Source: a virus. Taken from it: a stretch of DNA of 35,725 bases. This document shows positions 2,651-13,925 of the stretch, in pieces (within the stretch, counting starts at the first letter, position 1; each line of letters opens with the position of its first letter). The DNA is taken from IMG/VR virus record IMGVR_UViG_3300044537_000214. One strand, given 5' to 3'. A program made the position numbers and the translations under genes. The notes below the pieces were generated by a model, which was given only the letters and a program-made list of their open reading frames with translations, was not told the DNA's origin and made no database searches.

Positions 2651-4033
2651 ATGTCAGAAATTAAAGGGCAAGTAGTTGAAGGAAACGTGTTTATCTATCC
2701 TAAAGACGATGAAATGACAATGCCAGACTTGCTTAAATTTATTAGTAAGAATAAAAGCTTGGCAGAAGAATATAAGCATAACCTTAAAATGTATAAAGGT
2801 AATCATGATATCTTAACCAAGCAACCACGACAGTTTGGACCAGATAATAAGTTGGTGGCCAACCTGCCACATTATATTGTTGATACGTACAATGGTTTCT
2901 TTGCGGGTATTCCGCCTAAGGTAACGCTGGATGATAAAGAAACTAATAGCTTATTGCAAGAATGGAACGATGAGAATTCATTACAAGATAAATTAAGTGA
3001 GATTAGTAAGCAAGCGGACATCTTCGGACGGTCACTTGCTTTTGTTTATCAAGACGAAGATAGTCAAACACGGATTGCCTATTCATCCCCAGTGGATTCT
3101 TTCATGGTTTACGATGATACAGTATCACGACAACCGCTGGCTTTTGTTCGCTATTGGAAGAATACAGATAGTGTTCAAGTCGGAATGGTTTACTACAGTG
3201 ACAAGACTATTTCCTTTGAAGGTAGTAAGTTCGTAGATGAGACAACTAATCCTTATGGTTTAGTCCCGGCCGTTGAGTTTTACGGTAACGAAGAAAGACA
3301 AGGTGTTTTTGATAATGTTAAAACGCTGATTGATGAGTTAGACCGGGTATTATCGCAAAAAGCTAATCAGGTTGAGTATTTTGATAATGCTTATTTAAAA
3401 ATCCTAGGAGTAGACCTAGATCAGGATGGTGATGGTAAACCGGATGCGGATTTAATTGGTAACCAGATGATTTATAGTCCGGATGCTGATGCTACTAATG
3501 CAACTGTTGACTTTATCAGTAAGCCTGATGGAGATAACATGCAAGAACACATTATTGATCGTCTAGTCTCAATGATTTATCAAATTAGCATGGTGGCCAA
3601 TCTTAACGATGAGGCCTTTGCCGGCAATAGTTCTGGTGTTGCTCTGCAATATAAACTCTTGCCAATGCGGAATATGGCCTCGAATAAAGAACGTAAATTT
3701 CGACAAGCTTTGCGGCGTTTATACCGAATTGTGTTTAGTGTCGGTCAAGTATTGCCTGAGGTACATTCAGAGGACTGGAGAGAGCTTAAATTTACTTTCA
3801 AGAGGAATTTACCAGATGACATTTCAAACGATGCAGACATCGCTCGGAAGTTACAGGGGATGGTATCAAAAGAAACACTATTGTCTATTTTGCCATTTGT
3901 TGACGATCCTCAAGAGGAAATCAAACGGATTAGTAAAGAGAAACAAGAGGATATGCAACAAGCTCTTAAATATGGCCCTGCCGCATTAGACCAAGATAAG
4001 CCGGACGGTGATAAAGATGGCGATGTCGAATAG
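2651..4033 (+). CDS. Portal protein (SPP1 Gp6-like)
   Basis: 460 aa, positioned after terL. It has motifs typical of Gp6-type portals (PDNKLVANLPHYIVDTYNGFF) and an acidic C-terminus. Confidence 0.9.
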   Translation: MSEIKGQVVEGNVFIYPKDDEMTMPDLLKFISKNKSLAEEYKHNLKMYKGNHDILTKQPRQFGPDNKLVANLPHYIVDTYNGFFAGIPPKVTLDDKETNSLLQEWNDENSLQDKLSEISKQADIFGRSLAFVYQDEDSQTRIAYSSPVDSFMVYDDTVSRQPLAFVRYWKNTDSVQVGMVYYSDKTISFEGSKFVDETTNPYGLVPAVEFYGNEERQGVFDNVKTLIDELDRVLSQKANQVEYFDNAYLKILGVDLDQDGDGKPDADLIGNQMIYSPDADATNATVDFISKPDGDNMQEHIIDRLVSMIYQISMVANLNDEAFAGNSSGVALQYKLLPMRNMASNKERKFRQALRRLYRIVFSVGQVLPEVHSEDWRELKFTFKRNLPDDISNDADIARKLQGMVSKETLLSILPFVDDPQEEIKRISKEKQEDMQQALKYGPAALDQDKPDGDKDGDVE

Positions 4034-5858
4034 TGATTACTGGAAGAAACGAGAAGATGAAGAACGAAAGTGGCAAAAGAAAAATATTGCTAGTGATGAA
4101 GCTTTTAATCGTTTAATTGAAAGATACTATAATCAGGCTATCTCACAAATCAATAAAGAAATAGATCATCAGTATCAATCTCTCGCTAAGTCTGTGGGTG
4201 GTCTTAGTAATGCTTATTCTACCGTTAACATGACTGATATTGCTGATTATGAAGCTGAGGCTCAAAAGTTAGTTATGCAAGCTGCTCAAATGAGAGCGCA
4301 AGGTAAGAAAGTTACTTATGGTTCATTCAGCGATGATGTCAATCGGCGAATGAAGATCTACAATGCAACCATGCGAATTAATAGATTGGAGTATCTTAAA
4401 AGCCAGGTTGGATTGCATCTTACTGAAGCTAACATGAACATTGAAAATGCCACTCGATTGAAGTTAACCGACAGCTATATCAATGAGGTTAAACGGCAAA
4501 GTGGTATTCTTGGACGTAATCTTAAATTTAATAATGCTTTAATTGAAGATGATAACGTTGCTAAAATCATTATGGCTCAAACTGCTGGAGCAAACTGGAG
4601 TCAGCGATTATGGCTTAACCAAGATGCGCTAAAGGCTCAATTAGACACGATACTTTCAACAGGATTTATAACTGGTCAAAGCAATCAAGCAATGGCCCGT
4701 CAGTTGCGCAATCAGATTAAGAGTACAATTAATAATCATGCATATGTTGCCGAGAGATTAGTGAGAACCGAAACGGCACGTGTTCAATATAAAGCACAAA
4801 TTGATAGTATCAAGGCTGCTGATTATAAATATGTAAAATGGTATGCTGAACCTGGAGCTTGTCGTGTTTGCCAACGAATTGCTGATAATGATGAATATGA
4901 TCTTGGCTATGGTGTGTTTCCAGTGGATGAAGTTCCTCAAATTCCAATTCATCCTAATTGTCGTTGTAGTATTAGTGCTTATTGGGTTGAGGGCAAGGAT
5001 AATTTAGGTAAAAATAGTAGTAAGAAAACTTCTGAGTCATCAGATAAAGATAACTTTCAGAAGCTGATGGATACTGATATTACTAAGTTGAAGAAAGATG
5101 ATATTGAATATCTTGGCAAAGCAATTAATGAAAAATACCATATCGATAGAATGCTAGGTGATAAAGACGGAATTGCTAAAATTATTGCCAATTATCGTCA
5201 AGTTGGTGGTACGGTTGAAAAGAGTCAGTGGATGCCACGGTCAAATGCAAGTGTGAAGAAAGCATTAAATGAAGCTTTTAATCACTACCCCAGTGACTGG
5301 GTTAATTATTTAAATAATGGCGAATTTATGTATGCTGGTAAAAATCAGCGTGGATTTTATACAAGACATTATGTTGATGCACGTGGTAGATTTAAGGCAC
5401 CTTCAACAATAAAGACCCAGTCTGACATTCCAAAATATCTTCAAGATGATAAAGCTGGTAAATATAATACAATCTTTTCATCGGGTCGTCCTACTACAGC
5501 TTGGCATGAGTTAGGCCACTTCGTTGAAACTCATAATGAAGATGTTGAAAGGATCGAAAGAGAGTTTCTTAAAGAGCGGACCAAAGGTGAACAGACAAGC
5601 CGGTTATATGATATTTACAATGGTTTTATTAATTACCGACTAAGTGAAATTACTAAGAAAGATAATTTTATTAATCCATATATCGGTAAAGAATATCCTA
5701 AAGGAACAGAAGTACTTTCGATTGGTTTGGAATCATTATTTGAGCCGGGAAAAGGACAATTAAAATCGATTGGCAAAGATGGTAAGAATAAATATGTTAA
5801 AATTAATGAAGATGAAGAATATTTGAATCTAATACTAGGATTATTATTAAAGGGGTGA
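4017..5858 (+). CDS. Head morphogenesis protein (SPP1 gp7 / Mu F-like) fused to a C-terminal HExxH putative metallopeptidase domain
   Basis: The N-terminal ~330 aa carry MuF hallmarks (RLVRTETARVQYKAQ, CRVCQ...HPNCRCS). A Ser/Lys-rich linker is encoded around 5008..5050. The ~270-aa C-terminal domain contains WHELGHFVE (HELGH encoded at 5505..5519). The start may be 4008, 4017 or 4023. Confidence 0.85.
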   Translation: MAMSNSDYWKKREDEERKWQKKNIASDEAFNRLIERYYNQAISQINKEIDHQYQSLAKSVGGLSNAYSTVNMTDIADYEAEAQKLVMQAAQMRAQGKKVTYGSFSDDVNRRMKIYNATMRINRLEYLKSQVGLHLTEANMNIENATRLKLTDSYINEVKRQSGILGRNLKFNNALIEDDNVAKIIMAQTAGANWSQRLWLNQDALKAQLDTILSTGFITGQSNQAMARQLRNQIKSTINNHAYVAERLVRTETARVQYKAQIDSIKAADYKYVKWYAEPGACRVCQRIADNDEYDLGYGVFPVDEVPQIPIHPNCRCSISAYWVEGKDNLGKNSSKKTSESSDKDNFQKLMDTDITKLKKDDIEYLGKAINEKYHIDRMLGDKDGIAKIIANYRQVGGTVEKSQWMPRSNASVKKALNEAFNHYPSDWVNYLNNGEFMYAGKNQRGFYTRHYVDARGRFKAPSTIKTQSDIPKYLQDDKAGKYNTIFSSGRPTTAWHELGHFVETHNEDVERIEREFLKERTKGEQTSRLYDIYNGFINYRLSEITKKDNFINPYIGKEYPKGTEVLSIGLESLFEPGKGQLKSIGKDGKNKYVKINEDEEYLNLILGLLLKG

Positions 5859-6886: not shown

Positions 6887-7753
6887 ATGGCAACAGAAAA
6901 TATTACTACATCAAAGGATTTAATTGCACAATCTATTGATTTTACAGAACGATTTACTGGTTCAATTAGTACTTTGCTTCAAGCAATGAACGTAACACGA
7001 ATGCAACCAATGGCTGTTGGTTCACAGATTAAGATTTACAAGTCAGAAGTAAGCAAGGCAGATGGTAACGTCGCTGAAGGTGAAGTTATTCCACTTAGCA
7101 AAGTAACTAAGAAGCTAGCTAGTACTAAGGAACTGGTTTATAAGAAGTACCGTAAGCAAACCACCGCTGAATCGATTCAATCAGCTGGTTTTGGTCCGGC
7201 TGTAAATGACACTGATAGTAAGTTACTTCGTGCTATTCAAGGTGATATTAAAAAGGATTTCTTTGATTTTGTTCAAACTGGTACTACTAAAACAGATGGA
7301 ACTGACTTTAAGAAAGCCGCTGCTCATGCACTTGGGCAATTAACAATTAAGTGGGAAGATGACGACGTTCAATCAGTTCTCTTTGCTAACCCACTAGATT
7401 TTTACGACTACTTGGGCGATTCAGATATCACTACTCAAACTGCTTTTGGTCTGACTTATATTCAAAACTACCTTGGTTTTAACGCCATTATTTTAACCGG
7501 TGCAATCAAACAAGGCACAATTGCTGCTACTGCTAGTCAAAACTTGAACTACGCTTATGCTGCAATGAATGGTAGTCTAAGCCAAGCATTTAACTTAACG
7601 ACCGATGAAACTGGTTTGATTGGTGTTGTTCATAATGCTCTGACCGAAAATGCCTCATATGAAACTATGTCACTGACTTCTGGCGTGCTATTCCCTGAAC
7701 GACTTGACGGCATTGTAGTTGCAACCATTGGTGAGGCTTCTGCGTCAAAATAA
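6887..7753 (+). CDS. Major capsid protein
   Basis: 288 aa with a strong RBS (AGGAGG). It lies between the scaffold and head-tail connector genes, and its composition is typical of siphovirus major head proteins. Confidence 0.85.
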   Translation: MATENITTSKDLIAQSIDFTERFTGSISTLLQAMNVTRMQPMAVGSQIKIYKSEVSKADGNVAEGEVIPLSKVTKKLASTKELVYKKYRKQTTAESIQSAGFGPAVNDTDSKLLRAIQGDIKKDFFDFVQTGTTKTDGTDFKKAAAHALGQLTIKWEDDDVQSVLFANPLDFYDYLGDSDITTQTAFGLTYIQNYLGFNAIILTGAIKQGTIAATASQNLNYAYAAMNGSLSQAFNLTTDETGLIGVVHNALTENASYETMSLTSGVLFPERLDGIVVATIGEASASK

Positions 7754-7905
7754 CACCGCCCGATAATTCAGAAGCGGGCGATAATGATGTAAAACCAACG
7801 TCCGCTAACACGGTGGACGAAATCAAGAAGTATATGGATGAGCATGGAATCAGTTATACTTCTACCGACAATAAGCCTGATTTATTAGCAAAGTTAGGTG
7901 AGTAA
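7735..7905 (+). CDS. Start-less reading frame encoding an HeH (Rho_N/SAP-like) motif; putative -1 frameshift extension of the capsid protein
   Basis: The -1 frame relative to the capsid is open from 7735 to TAA 7903..7905. It encodes ...ITPPDNSEAGDNDVKPTSANTVDEIKKYMDEHGISYTSTDNKPDLLAKLGE. No ATG occurs before 7834, and the GTG at 7813 has no SD. Confidence 0.45.
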   Translation, partial: GFCVKITPPDNSEAGDNDVKPTSANTVDEIKKYMDEHGISYTSTDNKPDLLAKLGE

Positions 7906-7906
7906 T

Positions 7907-8293
7907 ATGGAACAATCTGTAACACTTGAAAATCTAAAAACGATGCTCCAGTTAAAAACTGACAAACAAAATGCCTTACTATCGCTGATTATTGATAATA
8001 CGGAACAGGCGTTAAGATTTAAGCTTGGCTTAGGACAGGATACCCCTTTCCCTAGTGAGCTAGGTTTTATCTCTCTTGAAGTTTGTGTACGACGGTATAA
8101 TCGTATCTCCAATGAAGGAATGGCTTCTTATTCACAAGAAGGACAGTCAATTACTTTTAACTCGTCTGATTTTGATGACTTTGAAGCCGATATTAATGCC
8201 TGGCGAGATCAAAACGGTAAGAATGTTAAGTCGCATGGACGTGTTCAATTCTTTAATCCATATCGGGGTGATAGCCGTGCGGTTCGATCATGA
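7907..8293 (+). CDS. Head-tail connector / adaptor (gp6-like, Phage_connect_1, SPP1 gp15 position)
   Basis: ATG at 7907 follows AGGTGA. The N-terminus MEQSVTLENLKTMLQLKTDKQNALLSLIIDNTEQAL is typical of this family, and the synteny fits. Confidence 0.75.
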   Translation: MEQSVTLENLKTMLQLKTDKQNALLSLIIDNTEQALRFKLGLGQDTPFPSELGFISLEVCVRRYNRISNEGMASYSQEGQSITFNSSDFDDFEADINAWRDQNGKNVKSHGRVQFFNPYRGDSRAVRS

Positions 8294-9965: not shown

Positions 9966-10298
9966 ATGGAAATTAAATTAAATGATAAAACAGTTCAATT
10001 AAACTTTGGTGTGCGTTTTGTTCGTGAACTTGATAAGGTTGCAGGGATGTCAGTTAATGGCCAATCTTTTGGCTTTGGATTAACTAAGTCTTTGCCTGCT
10101 TTACAAGCTTACGATCCAGCAGTTTTAAGTGATGTAATTTACTCTGCCGCTTATGGAGTAAAGCCACGGCCAACGCAGAATACAATCGATGACTTCATTG
10201 ATAATTGTGAAAACTTAGAAAAGGTATTTAATGAAGTTCAAAAGGAAATTAATGACTCAAATGCTGTTAAGGTAGCAGCAAAAAACATGAAGCCCTAG
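9966..10298 (+). CDS. Tail assembly chaperone (gpG-like)
   Basis: 110 aa, located between the major tail protein and TMP genes. A slippery heptamer lies near its 3' end. Confidence 0.8.
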   Translation: MEIKLNDKTVQLNFGVRFVRELDKVAGMSVNGQSFGFGLTKSLPALQAYDPAVLSDVIYSAAYGVKPRPTQNTIDDFIDNCENLEKVFNEVQKEINDSNAVKVAAKNMKP

Positions 10299-10738
10299 AA
10301 GAGCCGCAGACAAGTGAACAGCAGTATCACGAAATACTGCTAAATGGCCTAGCTCTTCTAGGCTTTTCTAATATTGAAGATATTGAACGAATGACTTTAA
10401 GAGAGTATCAATTGCGACTTGAAGCATATAAGATTCATCAGGTTAGAGAGCAGGAAAATCTTGCGACTCTTGCTTGGTGGATTCAAAGCGTTCAGGCAAC
10501 TAAAGGAAGTGCAAAGCATCCTAAACCCGTCTTTAGTGAATTTAAAGACTTTTTTGATTCTCAAAAACTGATTGATCAAATTCGTTCTAGTTTTGAAGCT
10601 GATTATAGTCCACGAGCTAGTGCTACTAAAGCGATTGACCGAGCACAAATTTTTAATCGTCGACTGGAAGAATTTAAGAAACTAAAAGCGGCTGGAAAAA
10701 TCGTCCCACTTAAAGAAAGGGGGATGAACAATGGCTGA
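9966..10738 (+). CDS. Tail assembly chaperone, -1 frameshift fusion product (gpGT-like)
   Basis: The -1 frame is open from 10271 to 10738 and contains track ORF 10391..10738. The heptamer A_AAA_AAC at 10280..10286 is in the correct zero-frame register. Confidence 0.75.
10280..10286 (+). promoter_or_regulatory. Programmed -1 ribosomal frameshift slippery heptamer A AAA AAC
   Basis: In gca gca AAA AAC atg, the zero-frame codons are AAA (10281) and AAC (10284). The stop in the G frame is only 4 codons downstream. Confidence 0.75.
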
Positions 10739-13700
10739 TAGTTATAGTGTTAGAGCAATCCTATCTGCAGTTGACCAATCCTTTAGTTCAACATTAGCAA
10801 AAGCTGGTCAGGCAACCCAATCGTTTGGAAAAATGGTAGATTCCCGAATGAATGGTGTTGGTAAAGCTATGACCGTAGCCGGTGCGGCTACTACTGCAAT
10901 GGGGATGAAGTCTGTTAAATCATTTGGTGACTTTCAAGCTTCACTAAACCAGGCGGCAGTTATTGCCGGCGGTACAGCTAAGGATATTGACGGCTTATCC
11001 GATGTTGCCAACCGAATGGGTGCTGTTTTGCCAATCAGTGCCCAAGATGCTGCTGACGCTATGGTTGAAATGGCACGAAATGGTGCTTCATTAGATGACA
11101 TCAAGAAACAATTCCCTGCAATTGCTCAAGCATCAACGGCGGCTGGATCTGACTTACAAGCAACCGCTGGAGTCGTACAACAAGCCATGAATATCTGGGG
11201 AGATAGTTTGAAATCTCCTCAACAGGCTGCTGCTATTTTAGTTCAAACTGCGAATGCCTCAAATGCATCAATCGAAGATATGCAACAAGCATTAGCAACA
11301 ATTGGTTCTACTGCTAAGATGGCTGGCATGGATATGGGTACGACAGCTGAAGCAATTGGATTGCTTACTAATCGTGGCTTCTCGGCTGCACAAGCTTCAG
11401 ATGACCTTAACCATGCTATTACGCAGATGTTGGCACCTTCCTCTGTTGCTAAGAAGCAAATGGATGCCTTAGGTTTATCTTTTGTTGATAGTGCCGGAAA
11501 GATGAAACCATTCCCACAAATTCTTCAAGAAATTGCCGATAAGACAGACGGGATGGGTGAAGCGCAAAAAACGGCTGCATTGAAAGCGATGTTTGGCGCT
11601 TCTGGAATGAAAGCAATTATTCCGTTACTAGAATCTGTTAAAGACACTACTGGTGATGCTAAAACGAGTTGGTCCGCTTATGCCGAAGAACAAGATAAAG
11701 CGGCACATTCAACTGCAGCTGCTACAAAATTTTTAGCTAATCAAGCTAACGAAATGCAGCAGAATATTGGTTCAAAAATTGAACAAGTAGGCGGTAATTG
11801 GGAAGCACTTCGCAATAAAGCAATGGCTGCTAAAGGTGGCGTTAATGGTGCTTTACTAGACATGATTAACCAAACGTTAGAGTGGGCAACCACTTCTGAT
11901 AGTAGTACTGCAAAGGTTATCAAGGGATTTATTGGACTATCTCCAGTAATTGGTCCAGCTGTAACTGCAGTAGGAGCTTTTACTACCAATCTTGGTAAGA
12001 TTATTGGGATTGGTGGTAGTGTCATAGGCACTATCGGTAATCTTGGTAAGACGTTCCTTGTTCTTAAGCAAGCATCGAACTTAAAGACTGCTATTACAGC
12101 CTTGAAGGCTTTAGGTAAGGAGTCTTTAATTGCAAGAACTGCAGCTGTTGCTTTATCAGCTGGATTAAAAATTGCAACTGCGGCACAGTGGTTATTTAAC
12201 GCTGCAATGGATGCAAATCCGTTAGGACTTATAGTAATAGCCATTGCGGCTGTTGTTGCTGCATTAACACTCTTCTTTACTAAAACAAAGCTAGGACAAC
12301 AAATATGGGCTAATTTTGTTAACTTCTTAAAGCAAGCATGGGCTGGCCTAAAAGCCTTAGCTACTACTGTTTGGAATGCAATTGGTCAAGCAATCTCTCA
12401 TCCTGTTGAAACAATTAAAGGGTTGTGGAATAACCTCTCTAGTTGGTTTGGTCAACTATGGCAAAACATTGTTAATACGGCTAAATCCTTATGGAGTGGT
12501 TTCGCTCAGTCTTTTAGTCCGATAGTAGAAGCAGTAAAGAGTATTTGGAATGGAATCTCAGAATTCTTTAGTACTTTATGGCAGGGTATTATTACAACTG
12601 CACAAGGAGTATGGAATAGTTTTGTTCAAGGAATGGCACCTATTGTTGAAGCAGTGAAGAATTTGTGGAGTGCGTTAACGGATTTCTTTAGTGTTCTTTG
12701 GCAAGGGATAGTAACTGTTGCTCAAGGAATATGGCAGACTTTTGTTCAAATATTTACGCCAATTGTAGAAAACATCAAAACTATTTGGCAAGCACTTCAA
12801 CCGTTCTTTAGTACTTTATGGCAAGGTATTGTCACAGCGGCACAAATTATTTGGCAACAACTAGTTACAGTGGTTCAAACAGTATGGTCGCAAATTCAAG
12901 CAGTCGTTCAGACATCAATTCAGGTACTATCTACTATTGTTCAAGCAGGTATGCAAGTAATTCAGACGGTCTGGTCTACAGTTTGGAATGTAATTAAAAC
13001 TATAGTTCAAACGGTTTGGAATATTATATCTACAATAGTTTCAACTGCAATCAATGCTATCGCAGGAATTATTAGAGCAGTAACAGCTGCTATTAAAGGC
13101 GATTGGTCAGGTGCTTGGAATGAGATCAAGGGCGTTGTCACTACTGTTTGGAATGGTATTAAGTCAGTTGTAACAACTGCAATTAATGGTGTTAAATCAG
13201 TCATTTCTAGTGTGATGAATGGAATCCGTTCTGTAATGAGTTCTATTTGGAATGCTATTAAGAATATTATTTCTAGCGTTATGAACGGTATACGATCTGT
13301 TGTATCAAGTGGCATGAGCGGTGTTCGTTCTGTTGTTTCAAGCATGATGAGTTCTGTTCGATCGGCGTTTAGTGCTGGTTGGAATGCTGCTAAGAGTGTT
13401 ACTTCTAGTGGTATTCGTGGAGCAGTTAACATTGTTCGCTCGATGGCAAGTGGGATGGTTTCTGCAGGTCGCAATTTCGTTATGGGATTTGTAAATGGTA
13501 TTCGTGGGGCTATTGGCGCTGCTGCTAGTGCAGCTGCAAATATGGCTCGTTCTGCGATGAACGCTGCTAAATCTGCTTTAGGAATCCATTCACCATCCCG
13601 TGTTATGCGAGACCAGGTTGGGTACTATGTTGTAGCTGGATTCGCCAAAGGTATGAACGATAACACCAATTTGATTGATAAGGCAGCTAATAATCTTGCT

Positions 13701-13925
13701 GCTCACGCAATGCCATCCGTTGATATTGGTAACTCAATTAATGGTGTTCTTAGTCACGGCAATCTCACTAATAACATTGGTGGTAAAATCGACCATCAAC
13801 TCAATATTAATCAACAGCCGGCCTATATTAATCTTTCACTGGGCGGAACAGAATATCGGGCTTTTGTTGAAGATATTAGTCGTGAACAAGGAGCGCAAAC
13901 TTCATTAAGACAATTTAGATTTTAG
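10731..13925 (+). CDS. Tail tape measure protein
   Basis: 1064 aa. It has a TP901-type core (GMDMGTTAEAIGLLTNRGFSAAQASDDLNHAI), central hydrophobic segments, W-periodic repeats and the C-terminal motif LGIHSPSRVM. Confidence 0.95.
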   Translation: MADSYSVRAILSAVDQSFSSTLAKAGQATQSFGKMVDSRMNGVGKAMTVAGAATTAMGMKSVKSFGDFQASLNQAAVIAGGTAKDIDGLSDVANRMGAVLPISAQDAADAMVEMARNGASLDDIKKQFPAIAQASTAAGSDLQATAGVVQQAMNIWGDSLKSPQQAAAILVQTANASNASIEDMQQALATIGSTAKMAGMDMGTTAEAIGLLTNRGFSAAQASDDLNHAITQMLAPSSVAKKQMDALGLSFVDSAGKMKPFPQILQEIADKTDGMGEAQKTAALKAMFGASGMKAIIPLLESVKDTTGDAKTSWSAYAEEQDKAAHSTAAATKFLANQANEMQQNIGSKIEQVGGNWEALRNKAMAAKGGVNGALLDMINQTLEWATTSDSSTAKVIKGFIGLSPVIGPAVTAVGAFTTNLGKIIGIGGSVIGTIGNLGKTFLVLKQASNLKTAITALKALGKESLIARTAAVALSAGLKIATAAQWLFNAAMDANPLGLIVIAIAAVVAALTLFFTKTKLGQQIWANFVNFLKQAWAGLKALATTVWNAIGQAISHPVETIKGLWNNLSSWFGQLWQNIVNTAKSLWSGFAQSFSPIVEAVKSIWNGISEFFSTLWQGIITTAQGVWNSFVQGMAPIVEAVKNLWSALTDFFSVLWQGIVTVAQGIWQTFVQIFTPIVENIKTIWQALQPFFSTLWQGIVTAAQIIWQQLVTVVQTVWSQIQAVVQTSIQVLSTIVQAGMQVIQTVWSTVWNVIKTIVQTVWNIISTIVSTAINAIAGIIRAVTAAIKGDWSGAWNEIKGVVTTVWNGIKSVVTTAINGVKSVISSVMNGIRSVMSSIWNAIKNIISSVMNGIRSVVSSGMSGVRSVVSSMMSSVRSAFSAGWNAAKSVTSSGIRGAVNIVRSMASGMVSAGRNFVMGFVNGIRGAIGAAASAAANMARSAMNAAKSALGIHSPSRVMRDQVGYYVVAGFAKGMNDNTNLIDKAANNLAAHAMPSVDIGNSINGVLSHGNLTNNIGGKIDHQLNINQQPAYINLSLGGTEYRAFVEDISREQGAQTSLRQFRF
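12399..12878 (+). repeat. Four tandem 120-nt (40-aa) in-frame repeats within the TMP gene
   Basis: Units start at 12399, 12519, 12639 and 12759. Examples are PIVEAVKSIWNGISEFFSTLWQGIITTAQGVWNSFVQGMA and PIVEAVKNLWSALTDFFSVLWQGIVTVAQGIWQTFVQIFT. Confidence 0.9.
13146..13574 (+). repeat. About 13 degenerate 33-nt (11-aa) repeats within the TMP gene
   Basis: Consecutive units include VMNGIRSVMSS, IWNAIKNIISS, VMNGIRSVVSS, GMSGVRSVVSS, MMSSVRSAFSA and GWNAAKSVTSS. Confidence 0.8.

Follow-up and report, generated by a model that had tools for sequence, protein, structure and literature searches.

The major capsid gene of the phage genome analysed here, IMG/VR virus record IMGVR_UViG_3300044537_000214 (35,725 nucleotides, taken at its full length and hereafter called the window), seems to end in a programmed -1 ribosomal frameshift, a reading to which we give a probability of about 0.86 and which would yield, besides the regular capsid protein, an isoform of 339 aa carrying a helix-extended-helix (HeH) domain at its C-terminus. 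The gene (6887..7753, + strand; the zero frame in the list of open reading frames, ORFs) encodes 288 aa and its 3′ end reads GCG TCA AAA TAA, with four As at 7747-7750 followed by the stop TAA at 7751-7753. Most ribosomes would terminate at this TAA and release the 288-aa protein, and a minority would slip back by one base as tRNA-Lys decodes AAA 7748-7750, re-pairing on AAA 7747-7749 with the assistance of a 6-bp GC hairpin situated 6 nt downstream. The slipped ribosomes would then read ATA ACA CCG and so forth up to TAA 7903, and their product would consist of the capsid protein, a flexible acidic linker of about 20 residues and an HeH domain of 30 residues.

In the -1 frame a TGA stands at 7732-7734, and from 7735 on no stop is met until TAA 7903-7905. 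Its extension part (7750..7905, + strand) counts 51 codons from ATA 7750, followed by that stop, and the post-slip reading is K-ITPPDNSEAGDNDVKPTSANTVDEIKKYMDEHGISYTSTDNKPDLLAKLGE, i.e., the linker ITPPDNSEAGDNDVKPTSANT (7750..7812, + strand), which lies upstream of any start codon and contains a conserved KPT motif, and the HeH domain VDEIKKYMDEHGISYTSTDNKPDLLAKLGE (7813..7902, + strand), recognised by the Pfam HeH matches of the family and by helices in an AlphaFold model. The only start codons in the frame are GTG 7813 and ATG 7834; neither has a Shine-Dalgarno (SD) sequence, and the 22 nt preceding GTG 7813 (aaaaccaacgtccgctaacacg) hold no SD-like purine run. The first-pass annotation of this DNA, made from the letters and a list of ORFs, had placed the capsid end, the A-run, the stop, the limits of the -1 frame and the stem exactly where the sequence has them, and its statements that no ATG precedes 7834 and that GTG 7813 lacks an SD are borne out as well. 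The size increase of about 5.5 kDa that it foresaw agrees with the computed masses (31.0 kDa for the capsid protein and 36.5 kDa for the isoform). The junction peptide that it put forward as a proteomic marker (...SASK-ITPPDN) is a poor choice, since trypsin would cleave it at the K; the tryptic peptide ITPPDNSEAGDNDVK belongs to the extension upstream of GTG 7813.

The putative shift site is G_UCA_AAA (7744..7750, + strand), with the tetranucleotide A_AAA 7747-7750 as the effective slippery element. The tetranucleotide fits the Z_ZZN minimum, whereas the full heptamer is canonical in relatives (G_GGA_AAA, C_CCA_AAA) and not in the window. Since Z_ZZN is the minimal -1 shift site (Atkins et al. 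2016 review, PMC5009743), the site of the window is of the minimal tetranucleotide type and may be inefficient. The zero-frame stop (7751..7753, + strand) forms the first half of the 6-nt spacer TAACAC (7751-7756), which separates the A-run from the hairpin.

The comparison with relatives carries most of the argument. Capsid-based searches gave 33 loci in prophages and viral contigs, whose genome records are named Limosilactobacillus or Lactobacillus, and the set of close relatives comprises 14 distinct junctions with capsid identities of 86-89%. In all 14 the string AAAATAACACCGCCCGA-(loop)-GCGGGCGA is invariant, the 6-nt spacer included, and the capsid codons just 5′ of the string vary, as does the loop. 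AAA is preceded by TCA, GGA or TTA (a Ser, Gly or Leu codon), with A as third base in 14 out of 14; given that the residue changes and yet the third base stays A, selection appears to act on the RNA run and not on the protein. Every one of these junctions has 51-52 open codons in the -1 frame, and the linker of one lineage is longer by a 3-nt insertion. Between the stem and GTG 7813, the linker has 1, 1 and 7 variable sites at the first, second and third codon positions of the -1 frame (the chance of at least 7 of 9 falling on any one codon position being about 0.02 by a hand-computed binomial), and this third-position bias upstream of GTG 7813 argues that the linker evolves as protein in the -1 frame. 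The corresponding numbers for the HeH part are 8, 5 and 24, a pattern that places the HeH frame under purifying selection. The KPT motif is invariant in an alignment of 11 sequences, and at least 90% of the sequences in an alignment of 37 share its proline. Taken together, the substitution patterns indicate translation of the -1 frame from upstream of GTG 7813, and the conservation of slip site, spacer and stem demonstrates, in the same comparative sense, that all three are under selection.

Members of the same capsid family that have no module (Lactobacillus phage LfeSau and loci L028-L036) pass directly from the capsid gene to the connector gene, and their capsid genes end in GCT TAA, AAT TAA or AAG TAA, without A_AAA; judging from these sequences, the A_AAA motif tracks the HeH module within the family. 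The A-run, the stem and the start-less frame, whose conservation in related phages the first-pass annotation had suggested comparing, are thus kept in 14/14 close relatives and, as described below, in dozens of distant loci. The comparative evidence therefore sides strongly with what that annotation had proposed, i.e., a start-less -1 frame reached by slippage on the A-run, helped by a GC hairpin and giving rise to a putative C-terminally extended capsid isoform.

The hairpin itself (7757..7780, + strand) is a 6-bp all-GC stem, in which cgcccg 7757-7762 pairs with cgggcg 7775-7780, with a 12-nt loop, and it starts right after the 6-nt spacer. Folding by minimum free energy yields this structure (-10.9 kcal/mol; z = -2.4 relative to shuffled sequences). 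It is followed by ATAATGATG, without any T-run, and a terminator scan makes no call, as expected from the earlier remark that the stem is unsuited as a terminator. An Rfam scan of 7600-8000 returned no family, only a single chance snoRNA match far under threshold. All six pairs are retained in the 11 aligned junctions, a single pair covarying from C-G to U-A in three of them, and the loop varies both in sequence and in length (6-12 nt). Since the loop is free to vary in both respects, we discarded a conserved pseudoknot that would involve it. Another candidate hairpin (CGTCC 7800-7804 with GGACG 7815-7819) was likewise discarded: in L011 and L019 the paired changes result in U-U, and each of the two is synonymous and at a third codon position.

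The distance between slip codon and structure also seems to matter. Over 49 junctions, the predicted structure most often starts 6 nt after the slip codon (16/49) and in 32/49 it starts at 4-9 nt. Where the capsid stop comes one codon later, the structure still starts 5-6 nt past AAA at five sites (L084, L085, L099, L101 and L115), the remaining sites of this kind having a different fold. With the structure keeping 5-6 nt from AAA despite the shifted stop, it is the hairpin, and not the stop, that looks like the positioned element, and a zero-frame stop occupying the A site is unlikely to be the main stimulator. The geometry of hairpin and AAA fits slippage with tRNA-Lys on the A-site codon, whereas the first-pass annotation had let tRNA-Lys slip with the TAA in the A site.

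The same arrangement is found behind capsid genes of other descent. A protein-database search with the extension matched only four called proteins: two of 30 aa starting at the GTG (P0003 and P0004, M/V-DEIK), one of 45 aa starting at a chance ATG in the loop, and an NCBI-sourced L. reuteri protein of 53 aa (P0002), whose annotated start is an ATC codon. At the locus of the latter (the L. reuteri prophages L038 and L039), the capsid is an HK97-type protein of 380 aa (PF05065) with an S78 prohead protease upstream, and its gene ends GCG TCA AAA TAA CAC CGTCCG-loop-CGGACG, followed by the same HeH. Aligned to the window, the L. reuteri capsid gene is dissimilar until about 9 nt before the stop, from where similarity is high. 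Its stem carries T for C in the 5′ arm together with A for G in the 3′ arm, changes that are non-synonymous in both arms (Pro->Ser and Gly->Asp), and such a compensatory change is the behaviour expected of an RNA element. By the evidence of these alignments, the cassette made up of slip site, stem and HeH has passed from one capsid gene to another, unrelated one.

Searching more widely, tblastn of the extension against phage genomes matched 88 records, from Streptococcus, Lactobacillus, Lactococcus, Leuconostoc and Listeria phages; among the 60 matches listed, a gene for a capsid or major head protein covers or adjoins the match, or the sequence is unannotated, with the exception of a few ‘hypothetical protein’ calls. 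Scanning IMG/VR with guidance from a profile yielded another 80 loci. The resulting survey covers 65 distinct HeH modules adjoining capsid genes, whose frame was scored against that of the preceding ORF (150 aa or longer): 57 modules lie in the -1 frame, five in the +1 frame and three in frame (phi adh type), and none of the 65 has a conserved start of its own. No ATG, GTG or TTG lies between the upstream stop and KPT in 45 of the 57 -1 modules, and all 57 have an A_AAA-type site adjoining the stop, in the form of NNA_AAA_stop (32/57), C_CCA_AAA, mostly with one more codon before the stop (12/57), G_GGA_AAA/T_stop (11/57) or another A_AAA (2/57). The linkers are between about 8 and about 60 residues long, and the HeH-bearing capsids fall in at least six clusters without any BLASTP connection.

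The domain is also joined to capsids without recoding: phi jlb1 (host L. gasseri ADH), Lj771, AQ113 and contig L096 encode major head proteins that are in-frame capsid-HeH fusions (e.g., ...EEDAKPNENNTVDEIKAYLDKNHIDYTGKTKKDELLTLVK). A PHROG scan of the phi jlb1 protein finds phrog_422 in its capsid part and phrog_12526 in its HeH part, and the phi jlb1-type capsid cluster also has members that reach HeH through C_CCA_AAA. The in-frame fusions show that the domain functions when covalently attached at the C-terminal end of capsid proteins.

The +1 modules belong to Javan393 (L044), Javan508 (L043), Lactococcus Q33 (L128), L080 and L106. The sites are CCC_TAA in Javan393, CCC TTA TAA in Javan508 and CCC_C / CCC_CGA TGA, plus a GC hairpin, in Q33. 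From their sequences, the five +1 modules resemble the proline-codon sites of the PSA type. The extension frame has no feature in the records of Javan393 and Q33, and in that of Javan508 it is overlaid by a 42-aa ‘hypothetical protein’ call.

As for the domain, the HeH motif that the first-pass annotation had read from the letters is clear for the family and in the AlphaFold model, and weak for the window sequence alone. The extension of the window taken by itself matches Pfam HeH (PF12949 clan) at E = 8e-5 to 2e-4, under the gathering score, whereas 35 out of 37 homologous modules have a Pfam HeH match (the best at 1.5e-9), and some of the 37 also match Ish1, Rho_N or SAP, the last two being matched by few. 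A profile matches the C-terminus of FluMu gp35, a Mu-like prophage protein (PDB 2OUT), at 1.5e-5. The AlphaFold model of the extension has a helix at 22-32, an extended stretch at 33-41 and a second helix at 42-50, with a predicted local distance difference test score (pLDDT) above 90, and no helix or strand in the linker (residues 1-21), where pLDDT averages 52 over residues 1-10 and 80 over residues 11-20. A Foldseek search of the 51-aa model against PDB gave nothing significant for such a short domain (all E >3), with the HeH-containing T4 endonuclease VII, the Rho N-domain and the MANF SAP domain as top matches at that level. The extension is acidic, with a net charge of -6 and an isoelectric point of 4.4 (the median net charge of HeH cores being -1), and this acidity argues against plain binding to the DNA backbone.

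Other explanations of the start-less frame have to be weighed against the frameshift. Were the HeH frame an independent small gene, starting at GTG 7813 (30 aa) or ATG 7834 and only incidentally adjacent to the capsid gene, the 30-aa proteins produced by gene callers (P0003 and P0004) would be accounted for, and free-standing HeH proteins do occur in Streptococcus phage T12, after the capsid gene, and in FluMu. We consider this very unlikely, nonetheless, because no SD precedes 7813, a start at GTG 7813 would drop the conserved KPT and one at ATG 7834 would also cut the first helix, third-position-biased change and an in-frame indel are found upstream of 7813, a start codon before KPT is missing from 45 of 57 relatives, and modules standing -1 to the capsid in 57 of 65 cases are not randomly placed. 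The first-pass annotation had raised the possibility that relatives carry HeH as an ORF with its own ATG and SD, which is not so in this lineage. A separate protein of about 51 aa would also result from re-initiation after the TAA, or from a non-canonical start overlapping the stop (ATA 7750, or ATC according to PGAP in L. reuteri). This finds some backing in the ATA that overlaps the stop in all window-type relatives, the ATC start of the P0002 entry and the annotation of A118 ORF7 from an ATG overlapping the stop (TAATG), but it leaves unexplained why an A constantly precedes AAA and why the hairpin is fixed 6 nt from AAA. In addition, no upstream SD is conserved, and most C_CCA_AAA-GCG-TAG junctions, L101 and JNU_P1 (GCA AAA AGC TAG) have no ATG, GTG or TTG near the stop and still keep the -1 frame and the A-run. 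With the in-frame fusions showing that the domain functions when attached to the capsid, the chances of re-initiation look very slim to us.

A GC hairpin right behind a highly expressed gene could also serve as a 3′ stabiliser, i.e., as an RNA-stability or attenuation element ending the capsid message, with the HeH frame an unexpressed and decaying remnant, and some relatives of the same capsid family are indeed entirely without the module. Neither a T-run nor a terminator call supports such an end, however, the late operon runs gapless into the connector gene, and the HeH frame is under purifying selection (8, 5 and 24 variable sites by codon position, as above) and open in all relatives, and hence we see practically no room for it. 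Equally, slippage of the RNA polymerase on the A-run could produce an mRNA one base shorter that encodes the fusion, and there is a homopolymer run at the site; but four As are, to our knowledge, far below the run lengths that support transcriptional slippage, and a conserved hairpin at canonical ribosomal spacing would be superfluous for it, which makes this mechanism exceedingly improbable. None of these alternatives predicts the in-frame fusions.

There are also points that weigh against the programmed frameshift. The heptamer of the window, G_UCA_AAA, is not a canonical X_XXY_YYZ, and its P-site tRNA-Ser would re-pair poorly on GUC; the shift therefore probably relies on tRNA-Lys alone, and its efficiency may be low. 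The hairpin is short (the -10.9 kcal/mol given above) and its z-score modest, and the covariation of the stem concerns one pair only, possibly through one evolutionary event. A chance ATG is in frame in a minority of relatives. Free-standing HeH genes with their own SD and ATG adjoin related capsid genes (e.g., T12 gp44), so the domain can work in trans. Lastly, the extended isoform of this phage and its close relatives is a putative one, for which we infer both how efficient the frameshift is and that the product enters virions. If the C-terminal additions of other capsid proteins with the HK97 fold are a guide, the predicted extension may be displayed on the outer surface of the capsid.

Comparison with known systems places the proposed frameshift of the window nearest to those of Listeria phages. 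The coat genes of A118 and A500 use -1 frameshifting and that of PSA +1 frameshifting (Atkins et al. 2016 review, PMC5009743, which cites Dorscht et al. 2009 for A118 and A500). Like the window, A118 has its shift site directly before the capsid stop (G_GGA_AAC TAA, its cps gene ending GCG GGA AAC TAA), then a 6-nt spacer and a GC-rich hairpin, and a -1 extension of about 52 aa ending in an HeH domain (Pfam HeH at 8.4e-12, 45 bits), and its -1 frame is annotated as ORF7, ‘HeH/LEM domain-containing protein’. Both have a scaffolding gene before the capsid gene and a head-tail adaptor or connector gene after the HeH frame. A118 differs by its full X_XXY_YYZ heptamer, a stronger hairpin (about -21 kcal/mol for a 69-nt junction segment) and an ATG that overlaps the stop (TAATG). 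Its capsid belongs to phrog_10 and that of the window to phrog_544, with a BLASTP match that is local, only 44 residues long and at E = 0.001, and the two HeH sequences are not alignable by BLASTP. The window would thus share the A118/A500 type by architecture and payload, and not by capsid lineage.

A +1 frameshift in Cps of PSA was reportedly described by Zimmer et al. in 2003. The PSA cps gene is annotated with ‘ribosomal slippage’ (NC_003291) and its +1 extension, which exceeds the Pfam SAP threshold, is an HeH/SAP module, so that PSA has, as the window would, a recoded C-terminal capsid extension with such a module, in this case by a +1 shift on a proline codon with a different stimulator. 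The surveyed streptococcal and lactococcal relatives with HeH modules in the +1 frame, behind CCC_UAA or CCC_C, are of the same kind as PSA. The precedent given in the first-pass annotation, Lactobacillus casei phage A2, whose gp5A and gp5B were reportedly described by Garcia et al. in 2004, holds as far as a -1 shift on ..A_AAA beside the capsid stop and two capsid isoforms are concerned. Its extension of about 85 aa is, however, Ig-like (immunoglobulin-like) by eye where that of the window is HeH, and its site ACC CCA AAA GCG TAA has the CCC part of the C_CCA_AAA heptamer that is missing from G_UCA_AAA. The A2-type C_CCA_AAA, mostly followed by GCG and the stop, is shared by 12 of the surveyed HeH loci. 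It is A118, and not A2, that is the closest precedent.

The phi adh-type heads (phi jlb1, Lj771 and AQ113) have the same HeH family, phrog_12526, with a K-P-x motif at the capsid C-terminus, but without recoding, with the domain on every subunit and on capsids of family phrog_422. T12 gp44 and FluMu gp35 (PDB 2OUT) also carry a C-terminal HeH module, that of T12 being encoded directly 3′ of the major capsid gene; unlike the extension of the window, each is encoded by a gene of its own, measures about 100-130 aa and has an additional N-terminal domain, and T12 gp44 has its own SD (GGGGGT 7 nt before the ATG) and ATG, when the frame of the window has no such SD, start or N-terminal domain. Ig-like additions by frameshifting, on which Fraser et al. 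are said to have reported in 2006, and for which gene 10A/10B of T3/T7 is also reportedly of relevance, share the logic of an accessory domain on a structural protein; their fold differs from HeH and presumably so does their ligand. The Atkins review, in which A2 is listed among the Ig-like extensions, describes Ig-like domains as joined to phage structural proteins either in frame or through a -1 or +1 shift, seemingly depending on where recombination had placed them (PMC5009743). Our literature searches for HeH or Rho_N capsid extensions found no paper naming the HeH payload, the A2 paper and that of Dorscht et al. being covered through that review only. Recoded HeH/SAP capsid extensions are consequently already documented, though grouped with Ig-like domains in the review, and the case described here extends an established type of recoding to Limosilactobacillus phages; it does not amount to a new mechanism.

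What is added concerns the payload and its distribution. The first-pass annotation had taken an HeH payload for unusual, which turns out to be wrong, as the module recurs behind at least six unrelated capsid families and is also encoded by the A118 (-1) and PSA (+1) extensions. To judge from the sequences surveyed, HeH is the usual payload of capsid frameshifts in Firmicutes phages, and the module travels with its recoding signal between unrelated capsid genes. The HeH/SAP module, which is the payload of the Listeria capsid frameshifts of the literature, is joined to at least six capsid sequence families by -1, by +1 or in frame, a parallel to the story of Ig-like domains that points to a second widespread accessory domain of the capsids of Gram-positive phages. 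It is tempting to speculate further that shift site, spacer, hairpin, linker and HeH make up a self-contained mobile cassette, with its junction about 9 nt before the stop, which provides Firmicutes phages with a sub-stoichiometric acidic HeH at the capsid surface whose ligand is not DNA, although we hold this wider reading to be no better than tentative and rather doubtful. In it, HeH might brace neighbouring capsomers or bind a polymer of the host envelope or the environment, in line with proposals made for Ig-like capsid domains. In practical terms, the site constitutes a natural and tunable position for C-terminal display on phages of lactic acid bacteria.

The HeH extension is common in phages of lactic acid bacteria and yet largely unannotated or mis-annotated in public records. 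It is missed or mis-called in most of those examined, and the records of phiPYB5, LFP01, JNU_P1 and Javan393 have no extension feature at all. In phage JCL1032 (L130, 1499-1669), ORF9 has been called spuriously in the zero frame, on top of the genuine -1 HeH frame with its site G_GGA_AAA TAG and an 8-bp stem, and the L. reuteri small protein P0002 (L038, 3001-3162) is annotated from an ATC codon; both annotation errors are caused by an unrecognised frameshift. A rule by which a capsid gene with A_AAA or CCC beside its stop, followed by a start-less HeH frame, is taken as recoded would recover dozens of capsid isoforms. In Dulem virus 33 (L003, 2394-2558), the capsid, 43% identical to that of the window, ends G_GGG_GGT TAA, and a -1 frame that opens five codons before the stop enters a 35-aa HeH ORF, annotated from an ATG without SD; its sequence may represent another -1 site, on a G-run. 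In T12 (L004), the capsid gene, which is of the family of the window, is annotated as two overlapping ‘major head protein’ coding sequences (1474-1887 and 1874-2365), which suggests a frameshift or a sequencing error inside the gene.

The capsid protein of the window is assigned to the PHROG major head protein family phrog_544 (5.8e-59) and is 73% identical to the major head protein of LfeSau; Pfam and PDB sequence searches with it gave no match, and a megablast of the junction against phage genomes gave zero matches, i.e., no near-identical phage record. The gene upstream encodes a DUF4355 scaffolding protein. Downstream, a gp6-like head-tail connector (7907..8293, + strand; Pfam Phage_connect_1, 1.3e-20) starts at ATG 7907, and a GGTGAG run in the final codons of the extension could act as its SD. 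The window is essentially a single whole phage genome. Its capsid region is 100% identical to that of L005, on the 35,952-bp contig CAMYRF010000002.1 of a metagenome-assembled genome labelled ‘uncultured Tenericutes’; because the genome records of the other relatives are named Limosilactobacillus or Lactobacillus, this label is probably that of a mis-assigned phage contig.

Elsewhere in the window, a minor head protein of 616 aa (4008-5858, + strand) has a Phage_Mu_F / SPP1 gp7-like core at residues 214-322 and a long C-terminal region, without Pfam assignment, that contains a HELGH motif (HExxH, metalloprotease-like). A frameshift like those of A2 and PSA was rejected for the major tail gene, which ends AGT AAA TAA with a short open -1 frame. 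The tail-assembly chaperone gene (9966..10298; Pfam Phage_TAC_12, 2.8e-25) holds the canonical heptamer A_AAA_AAC at 10280-10286, from which the -1 frame is open up to 10738, meeting the tape-measure gene (10731..13925); in sequence, this region (10280-10738, + strand) looks like a classical -1 frameshift of tail-assembly chaperones (G/GT-type).

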